64,000 bases of DNA from Escherichia coli (GTDB taxonomy: Bacteria; Pseudomonadota; Gammaproteobacteria; Enterobacterales; Enterobacteriaceae), in NCBI RefSeq assembly GCF_016026235.1, contig NZ_CP065613.1; one strand, 5' to 3'. The position numbers were made by a program, and so were the translations under genes. Of this stretch, positions 19,502 to 52,835 are shown one piece after another (position 1 is the stretch's first letter; every line of letters starts with the position of its first letter). A model generated the notes under the pieces. That model did no database searches. It saw only the letters and a program-made list of their open reading frames with translations, and was not told where the DNA came from.

Positions 19502-19540
19502 GGCCCCTTGTTACAGTTGTGTACAAGGGGCCTGATTTTT
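19502..19540 (+). terminator. Rho-independent terminator after mgtS
   Basis: GGCCCCTTGT...ACAAGGGGCC hairpin followed by a T-run. Confidence 0.6.
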
Positions 19541-19549
19541 ATGACGGCG

Positions 19550-19650: not shown

Positions 19651-19682
19651 GACACAGTAGCATCAGTTTTCTCAATGAATGT

Positions 19683-19699
19683 TAAACGGAGCTTAAACT
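19683..19699 (-). promoter_or_regulatory. PhoP box-like direct repeat AGTTTA-N5-CGTTTA (minus strand) overlapping the dgcZ stop codon; candidate mgrR promoter element
   Basis: Reverse complement of 19683-19699 is AGTTTAAGCTCCGTTTA, matching the (T/G)GTTTA-N5-(T/G)GTTTA consensus spacing. Confidence 0.4.
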
Positions 19700-29022: not shown

Positions 29023-29626
29023 AATTCACAGGTGTTTTTTCCCATCCTGTGGTTTCCTTGGCGTTTTCTAGGTTTTTTCAGATAGTTGCATTTTTTAAAA
29101 AGCATCCTAAGTTCGATCTCAGTGTCTATCTGGGGCCTATTTCTGTCCCATATATGCCCCAAAAAAAACTCCCCAACAGATAAGTAGTTTTTTCATGGAT
29201 TTATGCGTAAAATCAAGAACGGCTGGAAATCATTCAATACTCACACTATCGAAAAATTTACCAGCCAACCGCAGCACGTTCTTGCATAAGGCGTGTCTGC
29301 GGTTTTTCAACTATTCAGATACATCACTCCCATCACATTCATTCCTCCGCATCAAAGGCATATAGGCTATATCACCTTGATATTTTTCTTTTTCAGATAA
29401 AAACTGTTATCTATGTATACTTTTAAACCCAATCCGTGTAGAGTCTCTGCATAAGATAGTTTACAGTTGCCGCTTCAGCTTGCGCCATAAACCGCCTGAT
29501 TTTTGCTGCCACCTGTTAGCATTCCTGTATACCTGAAACGACAATGTTTATCTACGAACTTTAAGAACACCCAAGATAAAAATTGTCAACTATATCATAT
29601 ATAACACATTACTAATTCGAGGCTAT

Positions 29627-29740
29627 ATGAACAGCATACTGATAATCACATCTCTCCTTATCATATTCAGCATTTTTAGTCATGCCCTAATAAAATTAGG
29701 GATTGGCATATCCAATAACCCAGACAAAACCGATGTATAA
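29627..29740 (+). CDS. Candidate small hydrophobic protein (37 aa) upstream of ydfK
   Basis: ATG with a GAGG Shine-Dalgarno 7 nt upstream; encodes [37 protein letters not shown] (one predicted TM helix). Confidence 0.3.
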
Positions 29741-29775
29741 GTCAACATATCCTGAATCAGACATACAATATCGCA

Positions 29776-30042
29776 ATGAAAATCAATAATATTTTAAGGA
29801 ATATCTTCATGAAATCAAAAGACACCCTAAAGTGGTTCCCTGCGCAGCTTCCTGAAGTAAGAATTATCCTAGGGGATGCTGTAGTGGAAGTAGCAAAACA
29901 GGGAAGACCTATCAATACCAGAACATTGCTTGATTACATTGAAGGAAACATAAAGAAAAAATCATGGCTGGATAACAAAGAATTATTACAAACAGCGATA
30001 TCAGTTCTTAAAGACAACCAAAATTTAAATGGTAAAATGTAA
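29776..30042 (+). CDS. ydfK: Prophage cold-shock-associated protein YdfK (alternative start at 29809 giving 77 aa)
   Basis: 88-aa ORF; internal MKSKDTLKWFPAQLPEVRIILGDAVVEVAK... matches YdfK/YnaE-type prophage proteins as recalled. Confidence 0.75.
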   Translation: MKINNILRNIFMKSKDTLKWFPAQLPEVRIILGDAVVEVAKQGRPINTRTLLDYIEGNIKKKSWLDNKELLQTAISVLKDNQNLNGKM

Positions 30043-30358
30043 TATAATAAACTTACTTTTTTATCATTTTTCCACTTTAACAACATTTTGCTCCACTTTT
30101 CCACGACCAAACAACTTGAAATCTGGTTAAAATAACACGCAACACTATTCTTCTTCCTTGAGTCCGCCCGGAACTCGAAAAACAAACCGAGTTAAAGCCA
30201 TTTTTCACAAAATCGATTTTGGGTCTCACCAAAATTACGGGGTTGCATACGCATTCGTTTATTTTCGAACGTGTACATACAAATATGCACAAAAATAATC
30301 ATAATTATTTTCTGAGATGCATTATGATATGAACACCAATTTCGTATAGAGTCTCACT

Positions 30359-30949
30359 ATGTCTCGAATTTTTGCTTACTGTCGGATATCAACGCTGGAT
30401 CAGACCACCGAAAATCAACGCCGGGAAATCGAAAGTGCAGGTTTTAAAATCAAACCTCAGCAAATAATCGAAGAACACATTAGCGGCTCAGCAGCAACCA
30501 GTGAGCGTCCTGGTTTTAACCGGTTGCTTGCTCGCCTGAAATGTGGTGATCAATTGATTGTGACAAAACTGGATCGCCTTGGTTGTAATGCAATGGATAT
30601 CAGGAAAACAGTGGAACAACTGACCGAAACAGGTATCAGAGTGCATTGCTTAGCATTGGGTGGCATTGACCTGACCAGTCCAACAGGAAAAATGATGATG
30701 CAAGTAATTTCAGCAGTCGCTGAATTTGAACGAGACCTTTTACTTGAACGCACTCATTCCGGGATAGTAAGAGCCCGCGGCGCAGGGAAACGTTTTGGTC
30801 GACCACCTGTGTTAAATGAAGAACAGAAACAGGTGGTATTCGAACGAATTAAGTCAGGTGTAAGTATAAGTGCCATTGCCCGGGAATTCAAAACCTCGCG
30901 GCAAACCATTTTAAGAGCCAAAGCAAAACTTCAGACACCTGACATATAA
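30359..30949 (+). CDS. pinQ: Serine-recombinase DNA invertase Pin (Gin/Hin/Cin family)
   Basis: 196-aa [23 protein letters not shown]... with catalytic Ser in the RIS motif and C-terminal HTH. Confidence 0.9.
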
Positions 30950-31046
30950 AAAATAATCTCGGTGTGAGATGCTTTACGTCTTCCAAGCCCCCTTCCTTGC
31001 CGTAAATGGAAAGATACATCTAATTATAGAATTTATATGTTTTACC

Positions 31047-31622
31047 CTACGGCAGTGCTGGCCATTCAATATCCTGTGCAGTTGACGTATCAACACGGTT
31101 CAGCAATACCCGATACTTTTTCCATGCTTCCAGCAACGAGATTTCTTCCTCCGTTGCAATTTCCAGATCTGCAGCATCCTGAAGCGGCGCAATATGCTCA
31201 CTGGCTACCTGCATCAGGTTGTTTTTTGTTTCTTCCGCCTCCCGGATCCGGAACAGTTTTTCTGCTTCCGTATCCTTCACCCAGGCTGTGCCGTTCCACT
31301 TCTGAAACTCCCCTTCCGGCGATAACCAGGTAACATTTTCCGGTAACGGACCGAGTTCAGAAATAAATAACGCGTCGCCGGAAGCCACGTCATAAACCGT
31401 TTTACCCCGATGATCTTCAACGAGATGCCACGATGACTCATCACTGTTGAAAACAGCCACGAAGCCAGCCGGAATATCTGGCGGTGCAATATCGGTACTG
31501 TTTGCTGGCAGACCTGTATGAGGCGGAATATATGCATCACCTTCACCAATAAATTCATTAGTTCCGGCCAGCAGATTATAAATTTTTATGGTCCGTGGTT
31601 GTTCACTCATTCTGAATGCCAT
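31047..31622 (-). CDS. tfaQ: Tail fiber assembly protein Tfa
   Basis: 191-aa ORF directly downstream of the stf C-terminal segment. Confidence 0.85.
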
Positions 31623-34600
31623 TATGCAAGCCTCACAATATAGTTAAATGCGATGTTTTTGACGGTGTTTTCCGCGTTACCAGCAGCGTTAACGGTGATG
31701 GTGTGTCCATGTGAACCAATCGCAACGGAGTGCGTATGAGCACCAATACCGACAGTATGCGCGTGTGCACCTGCAGATGCTGCTGTGCCGGACAGTGAGT
31801 GGCTATGATTACCATCTGTACTGGTATTAGCTAACCACCCCGTAGACATACCTACTGAGCCTTGTACACCCCAGGTATTTTGACCTGAGCTTGTATAACC
31901 ATATTGATAAGTATCTTTAAAAACACTGGGGTTAAATCGACGGCCATCTCTATGGCTGTGATTACCAGCTGCATTCGTGCTGCCACTTAAACTATGGGTA
32001 TGCGCACCAGTGTTATTCGTGGATTTAGTGCCGTAATCAAACGACGATGTGGTTTTCGTCCCCAAATCCGTACTGGATGCGCTGGCGCTGTGGGTATGCG
32101 ATTTAATGCCGTCCTATTCCTGAGACAATACGGCCCGACCACTGGTAGGTTTGCCCTTAATCGTCCAGCCACGCATATCAGGGATCACGCCTGACGGATA
32201 AGCCGCTGCAAGTTTCGGGTATGCAGATTTGTCAAAAGTCTGCCCCTGCATCAGGGCATAGCCAGACGGAACGGTATCTGATGGCCACGGGATTGGTGCA
32301 CCGACTGGATAAAACTCTGCAGGAGGATGAGCCGAGGTGTAAAGCTGCGCCCACGGCGACCAGTTTGCGTCGGTCGTATCCCGTCGTGAACGAATAAATG
32401 CCGGAGCATGAGCACCGCTTGTACCACTCCAGCCGATGAGTAACTCACCTTCGCCAACGGCTGTCATCCCTTTCAGGTGAATGATATTTCCATACGCTGT
32501 TGGATATCCGTTGTTATACACCTCGTATAACTCAAGACCTGTTGCCCCCTGCGTATTGTCTGTCAGCGCGGTTACCCGACCTTTTGAAGACAGATTAACT
32601 GATGATACTGCTGTTCCACCTGACGGTAACGCCCCGATCTCTGATGCCGTTGGCTTATTTCTGGAGTTATAGTCCCTTCGCCAGCCAGGTGAATAATCTG
32701 TTCCGTGATTAATATAGGTAAACTGGGCGTTAGTTGTTCCACCACCAGTGGAGGTGGTCGGTGTGGTAATGCGGATCGTCATCGCTGACTTTATCCCCAT
32801 TACTTCAATGACAGCTCCGGCGAGATGAATATTACCGCAGTCAGTATCAGTAATGATTTTATTATTGCCATAAGACCAGGAACCCTTGCACATCCAGTAG
32901 GGATGGTTAAATGCTCCCTGAGAATCCAGCCACTCGATAAACTGTGCAGTCGTCCAGTTTCCTGTTATTGTGCTTACTGACCCACCAAAGGCACGGCAGG
33001 CACCAATATTTTTCGTAAAGGTGTCTTTGCCAGGGATATCCGCACCGTTCTGATCTTTCTGCAGACGTTTCTCAGCATTGTCATAGGCTGTTTTTACTGC
33101 CTTTGGTGTCGCGGCAAGCGTTTCAGACGTGCTGTTGGTCGCGCTGCTTAGCTGGATTATCCCTTTCTGTGCTGTCGTTGCATCCTGTGCGGTGTATTTC
33201 CCGTTAGCCAGGTCATACGCGGCCTTAACGGCTTTTGGTGTTGCCGCCAGTGACTCGGAAGTGCTGTTAGTCGCACTACTGAGCTGTACTATCCCCTTTT
33301 TCGTCGTGCTCGCATCCTCAAGCGCCACAGCGGATGCAATATCCTCTGCCCGTTTTGCTGCTGTCTCGGCGCGCGTTGCTGCGGATTCTGCCGTACTCTT
33401 GCTCTGTGCTGCCGCCGTCGCACTGCCAGCAGCCTCTGTTGCCTTCGTGGATGCCGTCGTGGCGCTGCCCTTCGCTGCTGACGCTTGTCTGGTCGCCTCA
33501 TCTTTTGAAGCAGACGCCGATGAGGCCGATGACGCCGCCGAACTGGCGGACGATGCGGCAGCCGTTTTTGAGGATTCTGCGCTGGTTTCCGACGCTTTCG
33601 CGTTCGTTTCGGATGTCTTCGCTGCGGAAGCTGACCTCGCTGCTGCGCTGGCCTGTTCAGTGGCTTCGCCAGCCTTCGTTGTGGCTGTTGAAGCGGATGA
33701 TGCGGCGCTTTCTGCCGATTTTCCGGCGGCGATGGCACTGGCTGAGGCCTGCCCGGCACTTGTTGACGCGGCACTGGCAGACGACGCAGCCGCTGTTTTT
33801 GAGCCTGCCGCAGCTGAGGCGCTCTGTCCCGCTGCCGTCTCAGAAGACCTGGCGTTCGTCTCGGACGTTTTTGCCGCCTTCGCGGAATTTGCTGCCGCCG
33901 TTGCCGAGGAAGCTGCGCTACTGGCGCTCGAGGATGCGTTCGTTTCTGATGATTTTGCCGCCTCTTTTGAAGCCGACGCATCCTGGGCTGAGGTGGCAGC
34001 TTCTGACGCTTTCGTAGTCGCGGTGGATGCAGAAGTGGCTGCTGATTGTTGTGACGCTGCAGCATTCGTTTCTGACGTTTTCGCGGCACTGGCACTGGTA
34101 GCTGCCGCGCTTTTTGAGGACTCTGCAGCGGCAGCACTTTTTGATGCTTCAGTGGCCTTTGCTGATGCCGTTCCTGCGCTGGAAGACGCTGACTGAGCCG
34201 ACGACGCGGCCTGTCCGGCTGACGTGCTGGCTGCGCGTGCTAAGCCTGCAGCATCAGTTGCATGGGTTGCCGCCTCACGGGCTGATGTGCCGGCATCGCT
34301 GGCTGACTTCTTCGCGGCTGCTGTGTTCTGTGCCACCGCGGACGCGTTACGCGCCACCTCTTCCACCATCAGTTCAAAACGTCGCAGTGCCTCCGGACGG
34401 GCATCATCCTCCGTCATGGCACCGAGAAAATCATTCAGCGTACCGGGTTGAGAATCTTCATACACGGTGATGGTCCCGGCATGTGACGGCGGGAATCCTT
34501 CCACCAACAGAATAACGCTGTACTGACCGTACTCAACGTCCATGCTGTAACGCCCGGCTTCATCCGGATTTTCTGAGGCCAGCGTGTTCACCACCACCGC

Positions 34601-34693
34601 GGTGCTGTTACGTTTTGCTTTCAGCTGGATTGTGCAGTTCTGTACCGGTTTTCCTGTGCCGTCTTTCAGTACACCTGAAATCTTTACTGCCAT
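31622..34693 (-). pseudogene. stfQ: Side tail fiber Stf, interrupted by an in-frame amber codon at 32114-32116
   Basis: 873-aa ORF (lambda-Stf-like [26 protein letters not shown]... start at 34693) and a 147-aa ORF with His-rich tail-fiber repeats share one frame, separated only by TAG. Confidence 0.7.
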
Positions 34694-34756
34694 ATTCACC
34701 CCACAAAAAGCCCGCCTGAACCAGCGGGCTGTCATAACACTGTGTTACCTGGCTAA

Positions 34757-35356
34757 TCAGAACTTATAACCGACACCCACGATGAAACCGTCAGTGCGCC
34801 AGTCGCCACTGCCGGAACCTTCATAAGCAAGGTCAATGGCCACGGATTCGGTCGGGTTAAACTGCACGCCAGCTCCCCACGCCAGAGACGTGTTGCTGTG
34901 GCGACCGTCATCACTTCCGGTCAGCACGTCGTGCGTTTTCCCCTTGTTGTCAGTTACGCGGAGATAATCCCCGGAGAAAGTCGACACACGGCTGTAAGCC
35001 ATACCCGCCATCGCATACGCGCTGAACCATTCATTCACGCGCACAGACGGCCCCACCATCACGCTGAACCAGCGGTTACGCACGGAATCTTCATGCCAGC
35101 GGGTATCGCTGTAACGGGTAAGCTGGCGATTCTTGTCTCCTGCATAGCTGAATGACGTCACCAGCCCCAGTGTGTCCGTAAACTCATAACGGTATTTCAC
35201 GTTAATCCCGTTAAGATCATCGCTGCCGGGAACGTTCGTCGAGGCATGAAGATACCCCGCGCTCAGCGTGGACTGATGTTCAGATGCCCATGCAGGCGCA
35301 CCGGATACGGCCAGACAAATGGCTGCGGACAAAATGGCGGCATAAAGTTTACGCAT
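34757..35356 (-). CDS. lom: Lom-like outer-membrane protein (Ail/Lom/OmpX family)
   Basis: 199-aa ORF with signal peptide and beta-barrel pattern, ending ...VGVGYKF. Confidence 0.85.
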
Positions 35357-35380
35357 AATTACCTCTCGCTTTTCTGCAAT

Positions 35381-35404
35381 AAAAAAGGCACCATTTCTGG
35401 TGCC
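35381..35404 (-). terminator. Hairpin plus U-run on the minus strand between J and lom
   Basis: Minus strand reads GGCACCAGAAATGGTGCC followed by TTTTTT. Confidence 0.45.
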
Positions 35405-35425
35405 CTTATATGGGTTATAACAATT

Positions 35426-38838
<3,413 letters not shown>

Positions 38839-38895
38839 TCACGCTCCATAAACGACAAAACCGCCCGGAGGCGGTTTCACATAAAACGTTTTTCA

Positions 38896-40888: not shown

Positions 40889-41217
40889 CAGTTCACCACC
40901 TGTTCAAAATCGGCCGTTACAGTCACCCATAACGCCCCCACGCTTGCCGACCATTTACGACAAACCACCCTGATCGGTTTCCAGTCATAAGGTGGCGTCC
41001 ACTGAAATGCGCGGACGCCACCGTGCCGTTCCAGAAAGGCTTTTAAAGATGGGTGTTCACATTTACGAACACGTATCGTCACGCTGTAAATCGACAACTG
41101 GTTATTCAGTCCCGCCGCACGACGCTGTTCATAACCATCGCCCAGCTTCACTGTCACCACTTTCGGCTCTGATACCACATTCATATCCGGGCGCACTTTC
41201 CAGTGAAACGTCTCCAT
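40888..41217 (-). CDS. Minor tail protein M (lambda gpM-like)
   Basis: 109-aa ORF, same length as lambda M. Confidence 0.85.
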   Translation of the reverse strand: METFHWKVRPDMNVVSEPKVVTVKLGDGYEQRRAAGLNNQLSIYSVTIRVRKCEHPSLKAFLERHGGVRAFQWTPPYDWKPIRVVCRKWSASVGALWVTVTADFEQVVN

Positions 41218-44200
41218 TACCGATATGCTCCACTTAACCGACCACCATCACGGGCCTGCTGTTGCATAAAGTCCGCTGCCGCTTTTTTCCCAAGGTCATA
41301 AACCACCTTCAGGGCAGCCGGACCTATCTGCCCGTTCGTGCCATCGTTATTGATCTCGATGTTGTACTGCGGGGCAAACATCGCCATACCTGAACCACCA
41401 ATATCCGCCACAACCCCCAGCTTACCGTCAGCACCACGACGCAGTGGCAGAATGGCTTCAGGTCCAGCTTCCCCCATCACACCCGCGCCTTTTGCAAAAG
41501 CAAAAAACGTCGGACGGTTAACCACCGTGCCACTGTAACGACTCAAATCAGCAGACTGATAAATCCCCCCATTGGCATTCAGGGAAAGGCTGCTGAGATC
41601 AAATCCCAGTACACTGCCAATCCCTTTTATCGATTTCATCATGGTTGCCTGCGCCAGGATTTTCGCCATATCTGACAGCACCGAAGAGGTGAAGGATTTG
41701 AAGTTGAGTTTGCCGGTAGTGACAAAAGTTGCCAGGCCATTTCCCATGTTGCTGAAGGCTGATGAGAACACCTGTTCTGCTGTTCCTGCCGTATTGTCTG
41801 CATCCACGGTAAAATCCTGAAATGCACGCAGGACTCCGTTTTTCCAGTTACCCTGCACAACTTCAAGCTGTTGCCAGTAACGGCGATTCTCATTCAGTTG
41901 TCGGTTCAGGCTCTCCGTCAGCGCCTGCTCGGCCTTTCTGTAGTCATCCGTGTTATATGTCCCTTTCTGCTCACTATCCCGCCTCAACTGCTCCAGCTGT
42001 TGCTGGTATTTCTGGCGAAGACTCAGTTGTACCTGATATCGCTGCCGCTGCTGATCACCCATACCCACCGTGGCGATATCCAGGTCATGTTGCTGACGCT
42101 GAGCGCGCTCTTCTTCAGCCAGTTGACTGGTCAGCTGAATTGTTTTTTTCTTCAGATCGTTGAGTGCCGTTTGTTTCTGAAGCTCCTGCTGTTTTACATC
42201 CAGCAGCGTCAGTGCCTGAATCAGCTCATTCTTACGGGCCAGCACACTCTTTTCATCTGCCGTCAGCTTTTTCCCGTCCAGGTCGCTGATGCGCTGCTGC
42301 AGGGCCAGAAGCTGTTTATGCGCTTCAGTCATCCTTTCAGTGGCAATGCCTGCTGACTGTCTTGCAGCAGCAATCTGTCCTTCCACCTGTGCCTGTTGCT
42401 GACTGTACTGCAGCAATAACCGGGTGGCCTCATCATTACGGGTTTCGCGTGTTTTTTTCTTACCGGATGCCAGGGCTTTCTCGTAACGTTCATTTTCACG
42501 TTGTATCGCCGCATCCCTGACAGCCTGGTCGGCGTACTGCATGGCATTAATACGCGCAATTTCACGCTGATGTCGTGCTGCTTCCGTTTCATTCATCCGG
42601 TTCAGTGCAGCATTTTCAGCATTACGTCGTTTCTGTTGCTCCTGATAATTCCGCTCTGCCTGCTCTTTTGCATCCTGCAAATCCTTCTGGCGTTTTTTCT
42701 CCTGAAGATCGTTAAGACGCTGCTGATCGTATTCAACCTGAGAAGATGATGCCGTCCAGGGGAGTCTTTTCGCCCGCGACACTTTCTCCTGTAAAGCGGT
42801 AATCTGTTCATCCAGCGAGTCTTCACGACCAATATTCATGGCCGCATCCCAGAAACGACTCCACAAATCAGACAGATACTTCAGCGTACTGCCAAGCGCA
42901 TTGAGGTTATTATCAATATCCGCAGTACGCCGACCGGTTTCCTCTGCCAGTGCAGACATGGCTATCCGTGCAGCATCACTGGACCGTCCCTGATCCCCAA
43001 GGACACGTATCTGCTCAAGCTGAGTGGCAGTAAGAAAATGCAGCTCATTGTCCAGAGCCTTCGCGGCATTTACAGGATCATCCTTCAGCCGCTTAAACTG
43101 ATTTATGGTATCGCTGACCGACTGGCCAACCGATCGCTCCATCTGTGCGGCAGCTCTCGCCACCATACCGATATCGTTTCCACGAAATGCACCACTCCCC
43201 ACCACCTGCGCCAACGCACCGGCTGCAGCATGTTGCGTGATACCATTCCCGGAAATAGCACGACTGAGCGTCCACAGCTGCCCGGCAGTGACTCCGGCAT
43301 AATGCCCCGTCAGCGACAACTGGCGGTTAAATTCTTCCCCCTCCTTCTGACCGTCATACCAGGCTTTACCCAGACCATAGACGGCCGCGGCAATACCGCC
43401 AATAACCCCGCCAAGCATCATGCCTTTCGGTGACATCAGTGCGCCTGTCCATCCGGCACGGTTAGCCAGCGTTATCCCGGATCCCCTCAGCGCCCCTAAA
43501 TTGCCGCGGGCCAGTTCACCTATCAGAACGCCTATCTCCTGGCGGGCTGCTGCACTTTTCAGACCCAGCGAATGCGTGGCTTTTCCTGCCTGCTCCATTT
43601 TGCGGATATACACTTCTGCAGCACTGCTTACCCCCAGCTGGGCTGCCCTGGCGCGAAGCAACTCAGAAGATGAAAGATTCTGGCGGGTTGCCTGCTCTTT
43701 AAGCTGACGGATAAACGCCACTTTCTGTCGGGTAGCCTCTTCCTCAGCCTGTGTAAGAACACGGGTTTTCGCAGTAACCTCAGAAATCAGCGCCAGATAA
43801 TCCTGCTGACCAATCCCGCCACTGTTTCTGGCCTGTCGGATCTGCTGCTGAATACGCTGTAATTCCTGCAGCCCCGCACTGGCCTGTTTCACACTGTCAA
43901 TCTGACGATAAAACGCAGCAGCCGCTTTATCCTGAGCCTCCGCCAGAGCCATGGCCTGCGCCTGTTCCTCGCGCATTTTCTGGCTCAGCGCCTCCATGCG
44001 CTGGCGGGTTTTCTCCACCTCGCGGGCCATGCGTTCATGAGCCTGTGCGTTCTTCTCCACCGTCTGCGCATGGACGGATGCGGCTGTTGCAGCCGAAGAA
44101 GCCGCCTGCGTTGTCTGCCGGGCGGCCTGAGTCTGACGCTCCATAAAACGCTGCATACGGGCAGAAGACCGTTCTGCATCGCTGGCTGCACCATTCAGAA

Positions 44201-44282
44201 GGTTTTTGATACGGGGAATTTCATTTTTAAACTCTGCCGCATCAATCCCCAAATCAATGACCAGGTTGGCTATCTGGTCCAT
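41217..44282 (-). CDS. Tail tape measure protein H (lambda gpH-like), start taken at MDQIANLVIDLGIDAAEF
   Basis: ORF 41217-44312; coiled-coil-rich about 1020-aa protein with gpH-like N- and C-termini (...NNDGTNGQIGPAALK...). Confidence 0.85.
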   Translation of the reverse strand: MDQIANLVIDLGIDAAEFKNEIPRIKNLLNGAASDAERSSARMQRFMERQTQAARQTTQAASSAATAASVHAQTVEKNAQAHERMAREVEKTRQRMEALSQKMREEQAQAMALAEAQDKAAAAFYRQIDSVKQASAGLQELQRIQQQIRQARNSGGIGQQDYLALISEVTAKTRVLTQAEEEATRQKVAFIRQLKEQATRQNLSSSELLRARAAQLGVSSAAEVYIRKMEQAGKATHSLGLKSAAARQEIGVLIGELARGNLGALRGSGITLANRAGWTGALMSPKGMMLGGVIGGIAAAVYGLGKAWYDGQKEGEEFNRQLSLTGHYAGVTAGQLWTLSRAISGNGITQHAAAGALAQVVGSGAFRGNDIGMVARAAAQMERSVGQSVSDTINQFKRLKDDPVNAAKALDNELHFLTATQLEQIRVLGDQGRSSDAARIAMSALAEETGRRTADIDNNLNALGSTLKYLSDLWSRFWDAAMNIGREDSLDEQITALQEKVSRAKRLPWTASSSQVEYDQQRLNDLQEKKRQKDLQDAKEQAERNYQEQQKRRNAENAALNRMNETEAARHQREIARINAMQYADQAVRDAAIQRENERYEKALASGKKKTRETRNDEATRLLLQYSQQQAQVEGQIAAARQSAGIATERMTEAHKQLLALQQRISDLDGKKLTADEKSVLARKNELIQALTLLDVKQQELQKQTALNDLKKKTIQLTSQLAEEERAQRQQHDLDIATVGMGDQQRQRYQVQLSLRQKYQQQLEQLRRDSEQKGTYNTDDYRKAEQALTESLNRQLNENRRYWQQLEVVQGNWKNGVLRAFQDFTVDADNTAGTAEQVFSSAFSNMGNGLATFVTTGKLNFKSFTSSVLSDMAKILAQATMMKSIKGIGSVLGFDLSSLSLNANGGIYQSADLSRYSGTVVNRPTFFAFAKGAGVMGEAGPEAILPLRRGADGKLGVVADIGGSGMAMFAPQYNIEINNDGTNGQIGPAALKVVYDLGKKAAADFMQQQARDGGRLSGAYR

Positions 44283-44583
44283 AACGCACACCTCCGGAAA
44301 TACCTTCCCCAAGATGCATCAGTTCTTCGTCCGTTCGCTCCGGTATCCCGTTCTCTTCCGGTAAAAGGCTGAAATCAGCCACCGCAGCATCACTGCTGCC
44401 GGACACCATTCTCACGATCAATGCCTTCAGCGAGGCAAACTGCGCATCCATCCACACATCACTGAAGCTCTGCATCCGGAAATAATCGCCCCACTCACCA
44501 AGCTCAGTGGCCGACATTTCCGACAGCATCCGCCGCCAGTCTGCCCGCCTGAACTCCCGGGCAAGCCGCATGACAAACTGCAT
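44254..44583 (-). CDS. gpT frame of the tail assembly chaperone pair; expected to be made only as a G-T fusion by -1 frameshifting
   Basis: 109-codon ORF in the -1 frame relative to G, overlapping the G 3' end and the H 5' end. Confidence 0.55.
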   Translation of the reverse strand: MQFVMRLAREFRRADWRRMLSEMSATELGEWGDYFRMQSFSDVWMDAQFASLKALIVRMVSGSSDAAVADFSLLPEENGIPERTDEELMHLGEGISGGVRYGPDSQPGH

Positions 44584-44591
44584 TTCCCGCG

Positions 44592-44978
44592 TCAGGACTT
44601 TTCCGGCGTCAGCACCTCATGCTCCAAATCCCCGGCATTCTCAATGGCTCCCATACCGCTCAGCGACAGAACCATCTCCGCCCCCGCTCCCAGGGCATCA
44701 TACGACCATGTTGTAATAACGGATGCGCAAAGCGTCTCAACATCCTGAGACTGTTCCGCATTCCACAGTGAGCGGGAAACCAGCCAGGCATTGATATCCA
44801 TCCCCATCCGTAGAAAAGCAATCTGTCGTTCAGCCTCCGGCAGTTCTCCCTCTTCGGCATCAAACTTTGCCGTTCGCTGCTGAACAAACGCCAGATATTC
44901 AATTCTCTGCAGCCCGGACAGCTCACTGAGCACCACGGACTGCTTTTCATAATTAAACGTGCCCTGTTTCAGAAACAT
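44592..44978 (-). CDS. Tail assembly chaperone G (lambda gpG-like)
   Basis: ORF 44592-44996; start at MFLKQGTFNYEKQSVVLSELSGLQRIEYLA, similar to the lambda G N-terminus. Confidence 0.8.
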   Translation of the reverse strand: MFLKQGTFNYEKQSVVLSELSGLQRIEYLAFVQQRTAKFDAEEGELPEAERQIAFLRMGMDINAWLVSRSLWNAEQSQDVETLCASVITTWSYDALGAGAEMVLSLSGMGAIENAGDLEHEVLTPEKS

Positions 44979-45037
44979 CATGTTCTCCGGATGCAAAAAG
45001 CCCCGGATAACCGGGGCAAATGATGAGTATCGTCCTG

Positions 45038-45669
45038 TTAACCTGCGGCGCTGACAGCCACCGTAGCCACTGCCACAAAATCGCCGTCAGAAGTCATGCC
45101 CACAATGCTGACACTGCCCTGCTTCACGCCTTTCACCGTGGCAGTCTGTGGATCTGTCGAATGCACACTGATCGCTTTGTCACTGGCTCCGTCAGGTTTT
45201 ACTGTAAAGGTCAGCGTGGTGGTTGCTCCCGCTTTGACACTGGCAGATGCCGGTGCCATCGTCAGCCCGGTAACGCCCACGATTTCAGTGCCTTCCTCTG
45301 CCAGATACGGAAAACATCAACAGTACCGTTGGGATATTTGATACGAAAAGCGCAGACTTCACCGGAGTCGAACAACTGAACCAGTTTTTTCTGCCCGCTG
45401 TCCCCCGGACGCCAGGCCAGCGTCGCCGAAGTATCACCGACTGATTTCTGCCCCTGGGTTGTCGTTTTCCAGTCTGCATCTTCATCATCGAGATAAGTGT
45501 CATCTTCTGCATCAGCGGTCATTTCGCCAGGTTGCAGATCCTTCACCATCGCAAGACGCAGCCAGTCAGTGTCCGATAAAGGGTTCGCAAACGCATCGCC
45601 CTTGCCGGTATACATCCAGAACGTCGTTCCCGCACCTTTCGTTTTTGCCAGTGGATTTGGTGTGGTCAT
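45038..45669 (-). pseudogene. Major tail protein V, disrupted by an out-of-frame internal deletion
   Basis: N-terminal part ([18 protein letters not shown]...VDVFR, then 14 out-of-frame codons and stop at 45262) and C-terminal Ig-like part (...[25 protein letters not shown]...) lie in different frames; about 30 codons present in lambda V are absent. Confidence 0.65.
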
Positions 45670-45679
45670 TACCACCTCC

Positions 45680-46081
45680 TTAATTCGTGTACGTGATCTG
45701 GTACGTGATTTCCGCCATCGCCCAGGTGGCCATCTCATTATCACGTTGATAGTTAAAACCGAGTGGGATCAGGGTGTCGATGAGTCCGGAAAGTGCTGGT
45801 ACATCATTCAGGGCCGGGAAAATGGTGCTCTCCATCCACATATCCAGCTCTGAATCCGGTGCCTGTGCCCGGATGAAGACAGCAATATGCAGAACAGCCT
45901 GCCAGTCATCTTCATCCGTCATTTTTCCGGTGTACTGAGCATCACTCAGCCACACCGCCACGGCAGGCAGTTCCTGCGCATCAACAAATGCCGGAAGCCC
46001 GTCAAAAAACGTGGCGCTGTCTCCACACTGTTCCCGAAGGCGTGCCAGTACGACCTGGCGGATTTGTGTATGTCGGTTCAT
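45680..46081 (-). CDS. Minor tail protein U (lambda gpU-like)
   Basis: ORF 45680-46093; start MNRHTQIR... at 46081, overlapping the Z stop (ATGA). Confidence 0.85.
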
Positions 46082-46656
46082 CGGGTCAGCCATAACCTCA
46101 GTTGTTGTTTCAGTGCATACCCCAGCTGTTTCGGCATTTCCGCAGCAATGATGCGGTCGCGGGCATCTTCAAATGTCTGTGTCAGCGGTCCGGACAGCGG
46201 GATTTTCACCACATCAATGGGGTAACGATTTTTGCCATCAATACGCCGCATCACATGCCAGCGACCATTCGCCAGTTGCTGAATAAACGCATCCCGGAAA
46301 AGATATTTACCCACCTTCAGCACACTGCCACGGTACTGCAGTTTTCCACCACGCCGGGCCAGTCTGACCCGGGCTGTCCCCAGCTTAATGGCAGGCAGAT
46401 TGCCCCGGTTAACGCGGATCCTGGCCGTCATTTTTCCTGACGGACTGGCTTTAAACACCCGGACACGCTGACGTACCAGTTTCAGGGGGATCCCTTTCAC
46501 CTGGTTATCTCCCGCAACGGTATTCCCGGCAACCTGCCGGGTGGCAACCGAGACCGCTTTCTGTGCCACACGGTTTATCGCCCATGCGCTGGCCTGTGGC
46601 ACCATACGGGTATCAAGGCTGTTCAGATTGCGGATGGCATTCTCAAGCCCCTTCAT
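46078..46656 (-). CDS. Tail completion protein Z (lambda gpZ-like)
   Basis: 192-aa ORF, same length as lambda Z. Confidence 0.85.
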   Translation of the reverse strand: MKGLENAIRNLNSLDTRMVPQASAWAINRVAQKAVSVATRQVAGNTVAGDNQVKGIPLKLVRQRVRVFKASPSGKMTARIRVNRGNLPAIKLGTARVRLARRGGKLQYRGSVLKVGKYLFRDAFIQQLANGRWHVMRRIDGKNRYPIDVVKIPLSGPLTQTFEDARDRIIAAEMPKQLGYALKQQLRLWLTR

Positions 46657-46667
46657 CCCACACCTCT

Positions 46668-46943
46668 TTACTCAATAAAGATCATTGGCTTACCGTTAAA
46701 GCGTTCATGCCGTGTGACCGTCCATTGTTGTCCGTCATAAACAACGCGATCACCGCGCCGTGGGCGGTATCCCGAAGAAAACACCACCAGAGAGACCGCA
46801 GGTCCGGACAGAGCATTCAGCTCTGCCAGTGTTTCTCCCGGGATCACAGTCATATCGACATCATTAATCGAGGCTGTCTTTCCCATCTTTCTGACCGTGA
46901 TAGCATCCATACGCGCTGCCAGCCGGGAAAAGGGATCAGACAT
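46668..46943 (-). CDS. Putative head-tail joining / adaptor protein (FII-position gene)
   Basis: 91-aa ORF immediately upstream of Z; assignment by position only. Confidence 0.5.
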   Translation of the reverse strand: MSDPFSRLAARMDAITVRKMGKTASINDVDMTVIPGETLAELNALSGPAVSLVVFSSGYRPRRGDRVVYDGQQWTVTRHERFNGKPMIFIE

Positions 46944-47259
46944 TGAGTTTTACCGGCACTTCTTCTGCACTGGTTCCGGCATCTGCCCAGACAACCCCGA
47001 CCAGCGGATCAGAGCCGCTGTTAGTCAGCTGAATTTTTCCGGACTTCAGATAAACCTTCTTACCCGTTTTCATGTCATCCGTTTTCAGCTTAGGCAGCAT
47101 AAACACACCTTCGGTCATGCCGTCGCCTGTTTCACCCTGTGGAATATCGGTCAGCGCCACCGCAAAAACATCGCCCACCTGCACCAGATCTCCGCTGCTG
47201 ATGGCTGCACTGGCAACAATCGCCACCGTTTTTCCTTCTTCTACAAAATTCTTTGCCAT
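46936..47259 (-). CDS. Hypothetical phage head-associated protein
   Basis: ORF 46936-47304; probable start MAKNFVEEGKTVAIVA at 47259; sits between the capsid gene and the head-tail joining gene. Confidence 0.45.
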   Translation of the reverse strand: MAKNFVEEGKTVAIVASAAISSGDLVQVGDVFAVALTDIPQGETGDGMTEGVFMLPKLKTDDMKTGKKVYLKSGKIQLTNSGSDPLVGVVWADAGTSAEEVPVKLNV

Positions 47260-47345
47260 AACTGTCTCCGCACAGCCCCGTTCAGGGGCTGATTTCAGGT
47301 ACAAAAAAAGCCCTTACGGGCCATCAGAGATGTTGTCTGCGACGT

Positions 47346-49057
47346 TTACGCCGTACATTTCACCAGACCGCGGTGATCAACTGGCGCGACACCGGCGTCA
47401 ATACGCACTTTCGTTGTCACGCCATCCACACTGAAGCCCTCCATCTGATCAATATATGGCGTATCCACACCGTTGAGATAAGCCACTTCAATCGTATCGG
47501 AGCCTTTTGACGCAGCCAAGTAGAAGGTGGTCTGGCTGTTATCATCAAGACGAGGCTCTGCAATAACGGTCGCAAAATCTTTCACCGGGTTAATAATACC
47601 GGCGTTAATGTCAGCCCCCTTGACACTTGAGGAGCGAATGACCTGGTTAGCAACAGACTCCATCGCCGTCGGTACCAGTACGAACGCAGGACGAATATTC
47701 AGATGACGCTCCCCCTCTTTCTGAACGCGCATCAACTGGCGGGCTTTATCCAGCGATGCCACGTCCATTGCAGCGCTCTCCAGTACGTTTGCATGTTTCG
47801 CTTTATCGAACAGACTTACATTATCTGTGGAGATTTTCGGGTTAGACGTCAGAATGGCATAAACCAGATCGGCAATAGTGGATTTCGCCGCACGGCCCAG
47901 TTTCATCGGGACATCGGTCAGCATATTCAGATCATCATTGATAATGGCCTGACGGGTGATACTGAACAGCTCGCCATAGGTCGCCAGTGCAATAGTGGCC
48001 TGTTTATCTCCGGTGGTGACGTATTTATATTCCGCCCCTTCACGCACCTGACGCAGAGCACTGAAGCCCCCCATACCCACACGATGGGCAATTTTAAAAT
48101 CAGACAACTGACCTTTCCGCGTCCACTGTTCATAGGTTTCAGGGGCATCTTCCCAGCCCTGCAGAATGGCTTTGTTCGCAACATCCAGCAGAATATTACC
48201 GAAGTCAGACGTACTGTGTGTGAACGCCGCACCGACCATCTGCATCGGGTTATAACCGGAAACCCCAATACCCCGTTCAGTCAGTGACATACGGGCATAT
48301 TCACGCAGGGTCATCCCGTTGTAGACATTATCACGTTCGGTTTTTTCAAATCCGGCACGCGCCATCAGCGCCTGGCGGATCCCGTCCCCCACAAAATTAC
48401 CGTTACCGGCATAAATATGAGCCGGGGTATTTTTATTGGATGGCGTGGACTCGCGCCCCATCTCGTTCAACAGCTTTTCACGGGCCTGCTCCAGCGAACA
48501 TTCAGGATCGGCAAGACACTGAGCCTGCAGCGTCTGATAACGCCCGCCAAACATGGCAAACAGATCATTAATACCGTTTACACGCGCTTTTTGCTCTGCC
48601 AGTACCTGCGCACGGATGCTGTTTTCATCCACCACGGGTGCTGCTGCCTGCACTGGCGTCCGGGAGGCTTCAGATTCATTATCCTGTACGCGTGGAGCAC
48701 TGTTGCGTGGCGGAGTAATCATGTTTCGAATGGATTCCGGCATCTTTTTAAATTCCTCTGTACGTTTTGACTGAATACATGCCATTGCCTTAACGGCTGG
48801 CGTTACCTGATCAGCAAATCCATGTGCCAGACATTCGGCACCGGACATCCAGGTCTCATCCGCCAGCATGGCAGCAATTTCATCGGTGGTTTTCCCGGTT
48901 TTCTGTGCATAAGCGGGTAACAGAACCGCCTCAACTTTATCGAGCAGGTCGGCATAGGTGCGCATGTCCTCCGCATCACCGCCCGTAAAGCCAAATGGTT
49001 TATGAATCATCATGAAGGTGTTTTCCGGCATAATGACCGGGTTTCCTACCATCGCAA
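47346..49057 (-). CDS. Prohead protease - major capsid protein fusion (HK97-like), 5'-truncated by the IS600-like insertion
   Basis: 575-aa ORF whose first codons (TTG at 49071-49073) lie inside the IS terminal repeat; N-terminal part ClpP-like, C-terminal about 330 aa capsid-like. Confidence 0.65.
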
Positions 49058-49100
49058 TGAGGTGTACTGGCAATAGCGGACACTACCATTTGTTCTTTTT

Positions 49101-49919
49101 TTAAGCAGCCATCTGATGATATTTTTCCCTGAAGGCTGCCGGGGAGATATTCCCCAGACGAGAGTGACGACGCTGACGATTGTAGAAAATCTCAATGTAT
49201 TCCCGTATTACTGAGATGGCTTCATCCCGGTTATTAAAACGATAGTGGCTCAGGCTCTCATTTTTCAGCGTTCCCCAGAAGCTTTCCATCGGAGCGTTGT
49301 CGTAACAGTTACCTTTACGCGACATTGATGTTTTCAGACCAAACTGCTCCTGTATGACCCGGTAATCGTATGCGCAGTACTGTGAACCTCGATCAGAGTG
49401 GTGGATTAGCCCGGCAGGTGGGCGCTGGCTCCTGAGCGCCATAAACAGGGCTTTACCTGTCAGCTCTTTTGTCATGCGCTCTCCCATGGCGTAGCCGACA
49501 ATTTCGCACGTATAAACATCTTTGATGCCAGCGAGGTACAACCATCCCTCCTGTGTGGCAACATACGTCAGGTCCGCCACCCAGACCTGATTTGGTGCTG
49601 TAGGAGCGAACGTCTGGTTCAGCAGATTTGGCGCAACTGGCAGATTGTGGTTCGGGTTCGTAGTCGCTCTGAACTTGCGTTTCTGCTTACAGCGTAGCCT
49701 TAGCTCCTTACGAAGACGTGCCAGTCGGTCACGACCAACGATGATGCCATTCTCTGCCAGCTCCGTCTGGAGCCGCCGGGTTCCATATGTTTCGCGAGTG
49801 CGGATATGTGCCACCTTAATCTCCAGTTTTAGCCGCTCATCACTTTGTTTTCTGTCTGAGGGTTCATGCTGTACCCAGTTGTAATAACCGCTCCTGGATA
49901 CACCAAATACCTGACACAT
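49101..49919 (-). CDS. IS3-family transposase OrfB (DDE integrase domain); normally expressed as an OrfAB fusion
   Basis: 272-aa ORF with ...HHSDRGSQY... and ...GNCYDNAPMESFW... motifs. Confidence 0.85.
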   Translation of the reverse strand: MCQVFGVSRSGYYNWVQHEPSDRKQSDERLKLEIKVAHIRTRETYGTRRLQTELAENGIIVGRDRLARLRKELRLRCKQKRKFRATTNPNHNLPVAPNLLNQTFAPTAPNQVWVADLTYVATQEGWLYLAGIKDVYTCEIVGYAMGERMTKELTGKALFMALRSQRPPAGLIHHSDRGSQYCAYDYRVIQEQFGLKTSMSRKGNCYDNAPMESFWGTLKNESLSHYRFNNRDEAISVIREYIEIFYNRQRRHSRLGNISPAAFREKYHQMAA

Positions 49920-49954
49920 CGCTTCAATGGGAAATTGTTGTCGCCATTGTTCGA

Positions 49955-50257
49955 TTAACGCGTATTTTTCAGCGACTCCTGTGCAAAATACGCTGTTGCT
50001 TTTTTTAATATATCTCGCTCAAGGCGAGCTTCATTTAACGCCTTACGCAGTTGCAGAATTTCAGATTCCAGTTCAGCCACCGTGCGGGAGCCAGGAGTAC
50101 CGAGCCCTTTTCTGGCGGCGGTAACCCATTGTCCTAAAGTGCCTTCAGGAAGGGATAATCGGGAAGCGCCTTCACTGATCGAAAGTTGATTTTCAAGAAC
50201 CGTTCTGACAGCTTCGGCTTTGAACTCTTTAGAGTAACGTTGGGTTTTTCTGCTCAT
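49955..50257 (-). CDS. IS3-family transposase OrfA (HTH, leucine zipper)
   Basis: 100-aa ORF MSRKTQRYSKEFKAEAVR...; ends ...LKKATAYFAQESLKNTR with the A7G run (plus 49998-50005) at the LKK codons. Confidence 0.85.
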   Translation of the reverse strand: MSRKTQRYSKEFKAEAVRTVLENQLSISEGASRLSLPEGTLGQWVTAARKGLGTPGSRTVAELESEILQLRKALNEARLERDILKKATAYFAQESLKNTR

Positions 50258-50439
50258 TATTAGCTCCTTCTGATGCCATTCTATTTCAGGAAGGAGTGTC
50301 CGTTAAACTCAGGCTACCTCAGTTTTCCCTGACTCTTACGCCTTTATAAACAAACCAGATACGTAATTTCCCTCCATGGCTTTCCACGCCTGTCGGATAT
50401 TTCATTTCAATTTCTCTCATTAGTTAGTGTGGCTTTTAG

Positions 50440-50691
50440 TCAAGTAAGATGACGTCTTGGTCTTGCTGATGCCTGGCGCTCAATCCAGCGATCAATTTCT
50501 TCCAGGTTGTAAAAGCATGGACTGTTATCCCATGGCATACCGTCATGAGCGACATGCTTATATTCCCTTCCTTCCATAAACGATTTTTCCCGGGCCTTTT
50601 TTAACGTACCTTTTTTTATTCCTTTCAGCGCAATTAACTGCTCTTCGGATACCCATTTGCCGGGAGAGACAATCATGATTACTTCGCTCAT
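50440..50691 (-). CDS. Putative prophage excisionase (Xis-like)
   Basis: 83-aa ORF with a GREY motif as in lambda Xis; adjacent to the recombination-module remnant. Confidence 0.55.
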   Translation of the reverse strand: MSEVIMIVSPGKWVSEEQLIALKGIKKGTLKKAREKSFMEGREYKHVAHDGMPWDNSPCFYNLEEIDRWIERQASARPRRHLT

Positions 50692-50763
50692 CGATTTCTT
50701 TATCTCTTACATCAGACGAGCGCCGGTTGCAGAATACCAGTCACAACCGGCGACAGTTGAACA

Positions 50764-50904
50764 TTAAGAATCAGCCTGACTCGGGATCAGTTTTTGCCAG
50801 ATAACTGAAACGTATTTTGCCTGGTAACGGGCGTCATCAAGTGCATTATGGCGCTCACCTTCGAATGGAATAGCCGTTCTGGCATCGAAGTCTATGGCTT
50901 TCCC
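50764..50904 (-). pseudogene. 3'-terminal remnant (about 46 codons) of a DEDDh-type 3'-5' exonuclease gene, truncated by the IS10-like element
   Basis: Minus-strand frame open from the IS end to TAA at 50764-50766 reads ...PIDFDARTAIPFEGERHNALDDARYQAKYVSVIWQKLIPSQADS*; H-x-A-L-x-D-A resembles the Exo III motif. Confidence 0.4.
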
Positions 50905-52824: not shown

Positions 52825-52835
52825 TATCTTACTCC

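Follow-up and report, generated by a model that had tools for sequence, protein, structure and literature searches.

A probable late-arm remnant of an mEp460-type lambdoid prophage, decayed in steps at the Qin site of Escherichia coli

A survey of 189 strains of Escherichia coli found prophages of 11 kb to 97 kb at the Qin locus; capsid, tape-measure and host-specificity genes occur in the larger of them, and the integrase is often inactivated (Ramisetty & Sudhakari 2019, PMC6379469). The K-12 Qin prophage has lost its tail and head modules, and its stfQ is fused to nohA. Complete relatives of about 45 kb have V, J, stf, portal, terminase, lysis, immunity and int genes intact. Complete Qin-type prophages (20Ec-P-124, NZ_AP017610) and viable mEp460-type phages use a head type based on a ClpP-like protease/capsid fusion, which is also the head type of the locus described here. 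In laboratory lambda the side tail fibre gene stf is itself broken (orf401/orf314), and the lambda annotation shows it split.

The locus lies in a window of 64,000 nucleotides from an E. coli assembly (contig NZ_CP065613.1). Sequence homology identifies the element at window positions 29023-50904 (21.9 kb, of which 20.6 kb is phage DNA) as a prophage in ydfJ, that is, at the Qin site; its attR and its homology to K-12 Qin agree with the preliminary description of this DNA, which had called it Qin-like. We consider it very probable that the element is what remains of the late arm of an mEp460-type lambdoid prophage that decayed stepwise and can neither excise nor form particles. The integration point is the ydfJ 5' end, in the interval from ydfJ to rspB, with rspB and rspA on the far side. 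Homology to the uninterrupted ydfJ of FDAARGOS_943 (L003) ends at 29028, the position of attR, and the truncated ydfJ (427 aa, ending at 29022) encodes the same truncated YdfJ as in K-12. Comparison of attB (L003), attR (window) and attL (L022) located the attR core and found no second att core in the window, attL being gone. On the right, the remnant is bounded by an IS4-family element beginning at 50905; the remainder of rspB and the first ydfJ codons were lost together with the left end of the prophage. We assigned genes by tblastn with the proteins of the complete Qin-type prophage of E. coli 20Ec-P-124 (L001), taking the Pfam assignments for Z, U, the tail and the small head genes from the near-identical relative L006. 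The features are as follows.

29011..29028, no strand: attR core CTGGAAATCCATAATTCA
29627-29740, plus strand: ynfT, intact, 100% protein identity to the L001 gene, also present in K-12 Qin
29809-30042, plus strand: ydfK, intact, 100% protein identity to the L001 gene, also present in K-12 Qin
30359..30949, plus strand: pinQ serine invertase, intact, 196 aa, 2 aa different from K-12 PinQ
31047..31622, minus strand: tfa, tail-fibre assembly, intact, 95% identical to lambda Tfa
31622..34693, minus strand: stf side tail fibre pseudogene with an in-frame amber codon
34757..35356, minus strand: lom (Ail/Lom outer-membrane protein), intact
35426..38835, minus strand: J tail-tip gene, split by a -1 change
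38896-39543, minus strand: I, intact
39441-40184, minus strand: K, intact
40190-40888, minus strand: L, intact
40888-41217, minus strand: M, intact
41217-44282, minus strand: H tape measure, intact
44254-44583, minus strand: T, intact
44592-44978, minus strand: G, intact
45038..45669, minus strand: V major tail tube pseudogene with 85-bp and 27-bp deletions
45680-46081, minus strand: U, intact
46078-46656, minus strand: Z, intact
46668-46943, minus strand: FII/Gifsy-2-type head-tail joining gene, intact (tblastn; Pfam via L006)
46936-47259, minus strand: DUF2190 'cement' gene, intact (tblastn; Pfam via L006)
47346..49057, minus strand: 3' part of a ClpP-like prohead protease/major capsid fusion (NF045540 profile positions 75-651 of 652)
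49058..50321, minus strand: IS600 (IS3 family), 1,264 bp, orfA and orfB intact
50322..50904, minus strand: early-left operon scrap, 584 bp, inverted relative to its native orientation
50322-50405, minus strand: int fragment in the scrap, 84 nt
50440-50691, minus strand: xis in the scrap, intact, 83 codons
50764-50904, minus strand: exo fragment in the scrap, 141 nt
50905..52198, plus strand: IS4-family element (PGAP: ISEc60 family) in rspB, 1,294 bp (NF033591 360 bits, cut-off 152)
52199..52848, minus strand: 5' fragment of the chromosomal gene rspB (locus comparison)

The L001 proteins from tfa through Z, together with the FII-like, DUF2190 and protease/capsid proteins, match collinearly on the minus strand in the order tfa-stf-lom-J-I-K-L-M-H-T-G-V-U-Z, and lambda proteins from Z through tfa match in lambda order as well (14 of 14), so that the tail gene order and the presence of head genes are as first described. 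The lambda head proteins W, B, C, D, E, FI and FII have no tblastn match in the window, nor do portal, terminase or DUF1441, and the head genes that remain are mEp460/HK97-like, not lambda-like. The capsid fusion scores 845 bits against NF045540 (cut-off 475) and lacks its first 104 codons, IS600 cutting it at residue 105. T is read in the -1 frame with respect to the end of G. An Rfam IS009 match lies inside tfa at 31081-31279, and ynfT and ydfK sit next to attR as cargo genes.

A functional tail module has all of its essential genes intact; here V is frameshifted, stf carries an amber codon and J is frameshifted in the window sequence. The stf change, already recognized in the preliminary description, is CAG to TAG at codon 860 of 1023 (window 32116-32114); TAG also occurs in L005 and L006, and CAG in L001, L002 and K-12. 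The reported deletion in V proves to be an 85-bp frameshifting deletion between TCCGT repeats (junction near 45311), accompanied by a second, in-frame deletion of 27 bp between GCCACGGT repeats (junction near 45142); deletions between 5-bp and 8-bp direct repeats carry the signature of biological slippage. Every lineage-relative locus that includes V (L004-L009, L029 and L030, from 8 other assemblies) has both junctions, the V-deletion product is present in at least five assemblies, and among the 1,836 complete E. coli genomes with this V none has the 85-bp deletion. Because the same changes recur in independent public assemblies, we regard the stf, V and IS600 lesions as real. The J frameshift is likewise present in the window sequence, as the loss of one C from a run of five (C5 to C4, near 36028-36032), but it is seen nowhere else: across 31.6 kb nothing else separates the window from a near-identical NCTC assembly, and the change appears in none of the relatives compared (L001, L004, L005 and L006), J being intact in the last three at 1136 aa. 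It is either a private mutation or a sequencing or assembly artefact, and for J alone we lean towards the artefact; unless reads support the frameshift, it should be left out of the count of lesions.

The far end of the remnant is built around two insertion sequences. IS600 is defined by a length of about 1.26 kb, terminal inverted repeats, an orfA/orfB programmed frameshift and a 3-bp target duplication; the copy here is 99.7% identical to annotated IS600, with NF033516 matching both open reading frames, and its flanks (caa and gtt) show no 3-bp duplication, the rearrangement having removed it. L004 and L005 have the identical IS600-capsid junction as a simple insertion with a TTG duplication and retain portal and terminase upstream of it, and LSGL01 and CABWDS01 combine an open reading frame across the junction of the capsid N-terminal part and IS600 with lysis, terminase and portal genes. 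The IS4-family element, a type defined by a DDE_Tnp_1 transposase, terminal inverted repeats and a 9-12-bp target duplication, has 19-bp inverted repeats and is flanked by a 10-bp duplication, CAGTCAGCCC, in L003 and L022; the window copy lacks the duplication, and its left flank is exo. L022 carries this element at the identical rspB site and in the same orientation. FDAARGOS_943 has it at the identical site but flipped, which the rearrangement model set out below does not account for.

Between the two elements lies the 584-bp exo-xis-int scrap, whose native orientation is seen in L010 and in L022, where the layout is rspB'-IS4-rspB''-attL-int-xis-exo-dicB-cI and dicB, a cI-like repressor, cro, int and xis are retained. 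L010 spans the Q, replication and immunity genes together with exo, xis and int, and its only matches in the window are this scrap and the chromosome past rspB. The gene losses claimed at first therefore hold for lysis, replication, immunity, terminase and portal; the claimed lack of an integrase is right in effect, 84 nt of int surviving, and the scrap is all that the element keeps of its early genes. In the window and the NCTC assembly alike, neither insertion sequence is flanked by a target duplication, and the 584-bp block is inverted with respect to the chromosome around it. The IS insertion noticed earlier is thus present as IS600, but as the scar of a two-step rearrangement rather than a simple insertion.

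The V deletions, the stf amber codon, the IS600 insertion, the rearrangement and the J indel are independent events that can be ordered on the relatives, and their different distributions uphold the first impression of multiple independent lesions. The V deletions and IS600 insertion are common to all lineage relatives, the amber codon is common to L005 and L006, the IS-mediated inversion and deletion are confined to the NCTC assembly and the window, and the J indel to the window. Divergence from the relatives with full prophages amounts to 2 substitutions in 15 kb, and 494 of 5,426 complete E. coli genomes have at least 80% of the region.

These distributions suggest a history in which an ancestral prophage of about 46 kb would first have acquired the two slippage-type deletions in V and IS600 in the protease/capsid gene, and then the C-to-T amber mutation in stf. 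Two rearrangements may then have followed, in either order: inversion of the stretch bounded by the rspB copy of the IS4-family element and a site in exo, and deletion of the stretch from the capsid IS600 to a site in int (or to a second IS600 in int). Together the rearrangements would have removed about 25 kb, comprising the capsid 5' end, portal, terminase, lysis, Q, replication and immunity genes and most of exo and int, along with attL, the ydfJ 5' end and the rspB 3' end, and would have left the inverted scrap behind. The order and mechanism of both rearrangements are our reconstruction, and an intermediate between them was not found among the relatives.

As it stands, the remnant has no integrase, attL, late promoter, antiterminator or packaging genes, and its tube gene and side fibre are broken. 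Since only attR is left, it cannot excise, and since terminase, portal and the protease domain are missing and the tube gene is broken, it cannot make particles, in support of the preliminary view that it makes none by itself. A complete, inducible temperate prophage would have an integrase, two att sites, a repressor and genes for replication, terminase, portal and lysis; this one has 84 nt of int, a single att core and no match for portal or terminase. The remnant is probably transcriptionally silent. It may offer homology for recombination with incoming mEp460- or lambda-type phages, and carriage of the intact cargo genes ynfT, ydfK, pinQ and lom is its other realistic role.

The missing target duplications and the inverted early-operon piece would also fit an element that was split rather than truncated, its head, lysis and early half having been moved to a distant part of the chromosome by an IS600/IS4 inversion, and the roughly 33 copies of the IS4-family element in the closest complete genome make long-range IS recombination plausible in this lineage. 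Yet the sequence past each element is local (the early-operon scrap and rspB), as a local inversion plus deletion predicts, and the junction open reading frame recorded for LSGL01 and CABWDS01 is not recorded for the NCTC genome, otherwise identical to the window; comparable fragments are called in that genome's gene record, although this absence is no proof. The case against relocation of the missing half is indirect, the analysis covering 64 kb of the genome, but we judge a split very unlikely. We give still less credence to the idea that the lesions are sequencing or assembly artefacts in a truly intact tail module. The homopolymer change in J, with its restriction to the window sequence, is what such errors look like, but the V deletions, with their slippage repeats, the stf amber codon, and the IS600-capsid and both rearrangement junctions are identical to the base in independent assemblies of different projects, so that an artefact is possible for J alone.

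Alternatively, stepwise decay could have spared a tail machine domesticated as an F-type tailocin-like bacteriocin, or tail genes under selection: of the 16 late genes still full-length, 13 are intact, and, as Bobay et al. 2014 is summarised in PMC6379469, lambdoid prophage remnants conserve their tail regions relatively well. Against this, V is frameshifted, the side fibre truncated and J possibly broken. Lysis cassette, regulator and late promoter are all missing, and nothing in the window corresponds to the regulators and lysis genes of the complete reference prophage (L001, L010). F-type tailocins have intact tube and tip genes, their own regulator and lysis cassette, and no head genes; here the tube gene is broken and head-gene remnants persist. 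With only 2 substitutions in 15 kb there has been too little time for neutral decay elsewhere, so the intact genes are no evidence of selection, and we find this reading scarcely credible. Of the suggested co-option of the tail genes, recombinational rescue by an incoming phage is plausible, but a working tail machine is unsupported. Somewhat less remote, though still improbable, is selection on the attR-proximal block ynfT-ydfK-pinQ-tfaQ and lom, with the adjacent tail genes as a recombination reservoir. The block is nearly unchanged relative to K-12 Qin although the two remnants retain opposite phage halves, and PinQ has reportedly been found to defend against T2 by inverting DNA in another prophage. 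If this were so, incoming mEp460- and lambda-type phages could draw J, H or fibre alleles from the 14 kb of intact tail genes next to the block.

On the preferred reading, stepwise decay of a late-arm remnant, the biology is already known, and the dead prophage is an ordinary occupant of the well-known Qin site. It offers a worked example of prophage dismantling by slippage deletions, a nonsense mutation, an IS insertion and then IS-mediated inversion and deletion, with intermediate decay states preserved among sister assemblies. For annotation, the locus is a non-inducible remnant, and release of phage or tails from it is not to be expected in this strain; beyond annotation its importance is small.

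Compared with K-12 Qin (L031), the remnant has the same integration site and attR junction, and ydfJ'-ynfT-ydfK-pinQ-tfaQ with the stf 3' end is 98.8% identical in DNA over 6.1 kb, TfaQ being identical. K-12 Qin retains lysis and cold-shock genes, Q, relBE/hokD, dicA/C/F/B and a truncated intQ, all of which the remnant has lost: L031 aligns only from ydfJ' to stf and from rspB onward, leaving dicA/C/F/B, relBE, hokD, cspB/F/I, essQ/rrrQ and intQ' without a match. The two thus keep opposite halves, bearing out the difference from K-12 first noted, and E. coli lineages can evidently retain complementary halves of one prophage type at one site. Complete Qin-type prophages and mEp460-type phages are collinear with the remnant from tfa to capsid at 96-98.7% DNA identity, the remnant holding 45% of the DNA of its complete relatives. 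An 18-kb query (window 31000-49057) is matched over 84-100% of its length at 96.4-98.5% identity by mEp460, mEp460_ev081, cdtI and Ayreon, and in mEp460_ev081 the ydfK-pin-tfa-stf end adjoins int-xis-exo, the arrangement of the phage circle. Against lambda, K, L, Tfa and the first 938 J residues are 94-97% identical, H, G and T 25-38%, and the C-terminal receptor-binding part of J 48%. Relative to the published survey of Qin-locus prophages (PMC6379469) there is no conceptual difference; the locus adds one more allele, with its history reconstructed here.

The chromosomal backbone of the window is of E. coli type, running from the mar region through truncated ydfJ to truncated rspB, rspA and ynfA-H, and is 99.95% identical to that of E. 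coli FDAARGOS_943, in which ydfJ is uninterrupted and no prophage occupies the Qin site (32110-33477 of its locus, L003, against window 27739-29028). On the left, the match to the FDAARGOS_943 ydfJ ends at window 29028, and on the right the chromosomal match restarts at 52199 within rspB, beyond a 1,294-bp IS4-family element at 50905-52198. Since ydfJ homology ends at 29028 and the IS4 element starts at 50905, 29023-50904 is exactly the foreign segment. Comparing attB in FDAARGOS_943, attR in the window and attL in a relative that keeps the native early end (L022) gave an att core of approximately GAAATCCATAA(A)TTCA, with attR the sole copy within the window. The integration site is the Qin site. 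K-12 likewise has a truncated ydfJ followed by ynfT, ydfK, pinQ, tfaQ and stfQ, and this block is 98.8% identical to K-12, with TfaQ identical and PinQ differing at two residues. The rspB IS insertion, 0.5 kb away, is common to FDAARGOS_943 and the prophage-bearing relatives; either the prophage arrived after this insertion or it was precisely excised in the FDAARGOS_943 line.

Gene content was examined by tblastn using the proteins of a complete Qin-type prophage from E. coli 20Ec-P-124 (L001) as queries. Full-length, gap-free matches on the minus strand were found for tfa, lom, I, K, L, M, H, T, G, U and Z, and for an FII/Gifsy-2-type gene and a DUF2190 'cement' gene. The match to stf is full length with one interrupting stop, J and V each match in two frames, and the ClpP-like prohead protease/major capsid fusion matches from residue 105 onward only. 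The portal, small adaptor protein, large terminase and DUF1441 queries had no match in the window; the portal protein recurs in over 10,000 blocks of the genome collection and is hence not genome-specific. The window likewise lacks lysis, Q, replication and immunity genes, as judged by alignment to L001 beyond the capsid gene and to L010, a locus carrying Q, replication, immunity, exo, xis and int of a complete Qin-type prophage, which aligns over an int'-xis-exo' scrap with no counterpart of the lysis, Q, replication or immunity genes.

The preliminary description of a near-complete lambda-type tail module, in lambda order and lacking lysis, replication, immunity, terminase and portal genes, agrees with these results: the 14 lambda tail proteins Z, U, V, G, T, H, M, L, K, I, J, Lom, Stf (orf401/orf314) and Tfa all match collinearly, with identities from 25% (H) up to 97% (K and J residues 1-938). 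Head genes were also said to be kept, and remnants are indeed present, but they are not lambda-like, as no lambda head protein matched in the window; the tail module is therefore lambda-type and the head remnants mEp460/HK97-like. The integrase gene, described as absent, is mostly lost, although its first 84 nt survive.

Several further sequence features were observed within the remnant. The canonical lambda slippery heptamer GGGAAAG is not present in the G/T overlap (window 44590-44610, minus strand); G ends in CCGGAAAAGTCCTGA (CCG GAA AAG TCC TGA), with T in frame -1 relative to the end of G. The sole Rfam family above threshold in window 27000-54000 is IS009 (RF02111, 221 bits), at 31081-31279 on the minus strand inside tfaQ. 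Long plus-strand antisense ORFs lie opposite J (36211-38046, 611 codons), K/L (39494-40837, 447 codons) and stf (33129-34196, 355 codons), and are most likely shadow ORFs like those opposite other long phage structural genes.

Lesions and rearrangement scars in the remnant:
32116-32114, minus strand: stf amber, one C>T at codon 860, CAG in L001, O121 RM8352 (L002) and K-12, TAG here
V, deletion 1: 85 bp between two TCCGT repeats, shifting the frame past residue ~132
V, deletion 2: 27 bp, in frame, between two GCCACGGT repeats in the C-terminal Ig-like part
~36028-36032: J frameshift, one C short in a CCCCC run, shifting the frame at residue ~938
49058-50321: IS600 (IS3 family), 1,264 bp, 99.7% identity to annotated IS600, with two intact ORFs
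50322-50904, minus strand: 584-bp block made up of int (first 84 nt), xis (83 codons, intact) and exo (last 141 nt)

The amber codon removes the distal 164 residues of Stf, and IS600 interrupts the capsid fusion gene at residue 105, leaving it without its first 104 codons, including the beginning of the protease domain. The J indel falls at the junction of the lambda-like N-terminal part and a divergent receptor-binding end; the last ~200 residues (window 35426-36034) are only 48% identical to lambda J, and the receptor recognized by this J is presumably not LamB.

Relatives from other sequencing projects were collected by exact-protein look-up, and the lesion junctions were then probed across them.

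Recurrence of the lesions among lineage relatives:
Both V deletions: all loci covering V (L004-L009, L029, L030)
IS600/capsid-3' junction: L004-L007, L029
stf TAG: L005, L006
IS600/int' and exo'/IS4 junctions: only L006, an NCTC assembly (GCA_900449985.1)
J C4 allele: none; C5 and a 1,136-aa J in L001, L004, L005, L006

This V occurs in 1,836 complete E. coli genomes, all of them without the 85-bp deletion, which is thus lineage-specific. The recurrence of the V, stf and IS lesions in independent assemblies confirms them, and to this extent the multiple lesions originally listed hold; the J frameshift, seen in the window alone, is doubtful. Window 31218-62824 differs from the NCTC assembly by no substitutions and a single indel, the J indel itself, and exact-protein look-up of the frameshifted J fragment returned no match, although pseudogenes are often not called as genes. 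For the frameshift there are two readings, a private mutation of very recent origin and a sequencing error in the homopolymer, and we lean somewhat towards the error. The alignment proposed as a check, against lambda and other Qin-locus prophages, located the lesions and found the tail module collinear.

The IS600 in the capsid gene had been read as an insertion, and while the element is there, the simple insertion does not stand, since the right end is the scar of a two-step rearrangement. In L004 (GCA_014155105.1) and L005, IS600 interrupts the capsid gene at the same point and has a TTG target duplication at its ends; the capsid 5' end, portal and terminase are upstream. A lineage-specific ORF spanning the capsid 5' part and IS600 is also found in LSGL01, beside lysis, terminase and portal genes, and in CABWDS01. 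In the window and the NCTC genome, IS600 lacks a target duplication (flanks caa and gtt) and adjoins the contiguous 584-bp block, which is inverted relative to complete Qin-type prophages (L010) and to L022 (99.9% identical). The native right end in L022 runs from the rspB 5' part through the IS4 element and the rspB 3' part to the ydfJ 5' end with attL, followed by int, xis, exo, IS1, ydfD, dicB and a cI-like repressor with cro. The IS4 element in L022 has the window orientation and a 10-bp duplication, GGGCTGACTG; in the window its left flank is exo and the duplication is absent.

Single-step models, whether a replicative inversion by IS4, a homologous inversion between IS copies or an adjacent deletion, were rejected because none yields both the inverted 584-bp block and the capsid-exo loss; two events are required. 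One may have inverted the stretch from the rspB IS4 element to a site in exo, by intramolecular transposition or through a second inverted copy, and the other may have been a deletion between the capsid-gene IS600 and int, by adjacent deletion or recombination with a second IS600. The alternative order, an IS600 inversion followed by an IS4 adjacent deletion, would be equally possible. Either route would remove, by coordinates, ~23.8 kb of prophage from capsid codon 105 to exo, together with attL, the remainder of int, the 5' end of ydfJ and the 3' end of rspB. The exo breakpoint, tttCCC/CAGctcaacg, resembles the rspB target, cgCC/CAGTCAGCCC, a likeness that would fit IS4 transposition chemistry at the exo junction. 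True loss of the missing part is favoured over relocation, though not proven, because the NCTC genome, in which comparable fragments were called genes, has no capsid-IS600 junction ORF on record.

The orientation of the rspB element in FDAARGOS_943 was considered as ancestral, but this was dropped because in L022 the element is oriented as in the window and flanked by a proper target duplication. This 1,294-bp element (L003 33938-35231, window 50905-52198, L022 10627-11920) occupies one and the same site in rspB in FDAARGOS_943 and L022, with an identical 10-bp duplication but in opposite orientations, although the genomes are ~99.95% identical; this would call for the element either to have flipped in place or to have inserted there a second time. 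Among 5,426 complete E. coli genomes, a copy in rspB occurs in FDAARGOS_943 alone, which carries ~33 copies of the element.

The remnant is nonfunctional as a phage, and the claim that it cannot make particles is borne out. With no integrase and a single att site, excision is impossible; lacking a repressor, replication genes, Q and a late promoter, it has no programme to run; the loss of terminase, portal and the first 104 capsid codons precludes heads; and the frameshift in V precludes a tail tube. A tailocin reading was ruled out, with V broken and lysis genes and regulators absent. Judging from intact reading frames, the cargo genes ynfT, ydfK, pinQ and lom are potentially active, as are the orphan xis and the two apparently intact IS elements. 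K-12 PinQ is reported to act in trans, inverting the e14 P segment and blocking phage T2 adsorption (2025 paper, PMC12529663), and the near-identical, intact serine invertase here (window 30359-30949) is a candidate for the same activity. When the surroundings of pinQ, tfa and stf were scanned for inverted repeats that could bound a Pin-invertible segment, only weak, chance-level pairs emerged, and no alternative fibre cassette was found beside pinQ. Related phages that infect the cell could plausibly acquire the intact tail genes through homologous recombination, consistent with the 96-98.5% identity to viable phages; recombinational gene capture is documented for defective prophages in general (De Paepe et al. 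2014, PMC3945230; summarised in PMC6379469). The intactness of these tail genes is not evidence of selection, because relatives with the full prophage are only two substitutions apart in 15 kb.

Other structural variation was seen in and around these loci. In E. coli O121 RM8352 (L002 3594-8001), int is complete and sits immediately upstream of ynfT-ydfK-pin-tfa, giving an int-attP-tail-end junction like that of a phage circle, with IS600 copies downstream of exo and within tfa and a second truncated prophage next; the region resembles a Qin-type array that is tandem or rearranged. L004 has a ~770-bp insertion between J and lom (18939-19708) and, past lom (beyond 20417), a shorter fibre gene of another kind, followed by a DUF4376 protein and a gene for an ABC-3 transporter; the right end or the location of its prophage copy therefore differs. 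Elsewhere in the window, a 6.3-kb island between marB and eamA (10696-16980) carries genes for a PTS cellobiose-type transporter, a 6-phospho-beta-glucosidase, a carbohydrate porin and a GntR regulator. The island is missing from 20Ec-P-124, reaches at least 80% coverage in 2,494 of the 5,426 complete genomes and contains an IS1 and a deletion in FDAARGOS_943.

IS-mediated prophage erosion is textbook biology, and the remnant represents already-known biology, the earlier observation being confirmed and its interpretation supported. At least 80% of the 21.9-kb interval occurs in one place in 494 of the 5,426 complete genomes. Across strains, Qin-locus prophages range from 11 to 97 kb, the larger ones with structural genes (PMC6379469). 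The closest viable phages are mEp460_ev081 (100% of an 18-kb query at 98.5% identity), mEp460, vB_EcoS-569R4, Ayreon, phi458 and cdtI; in mEp460_ev081, ydfK-pin-tfa-stf adjoins int-xis-exo, as the circular form of a Qin-type phage would have it.
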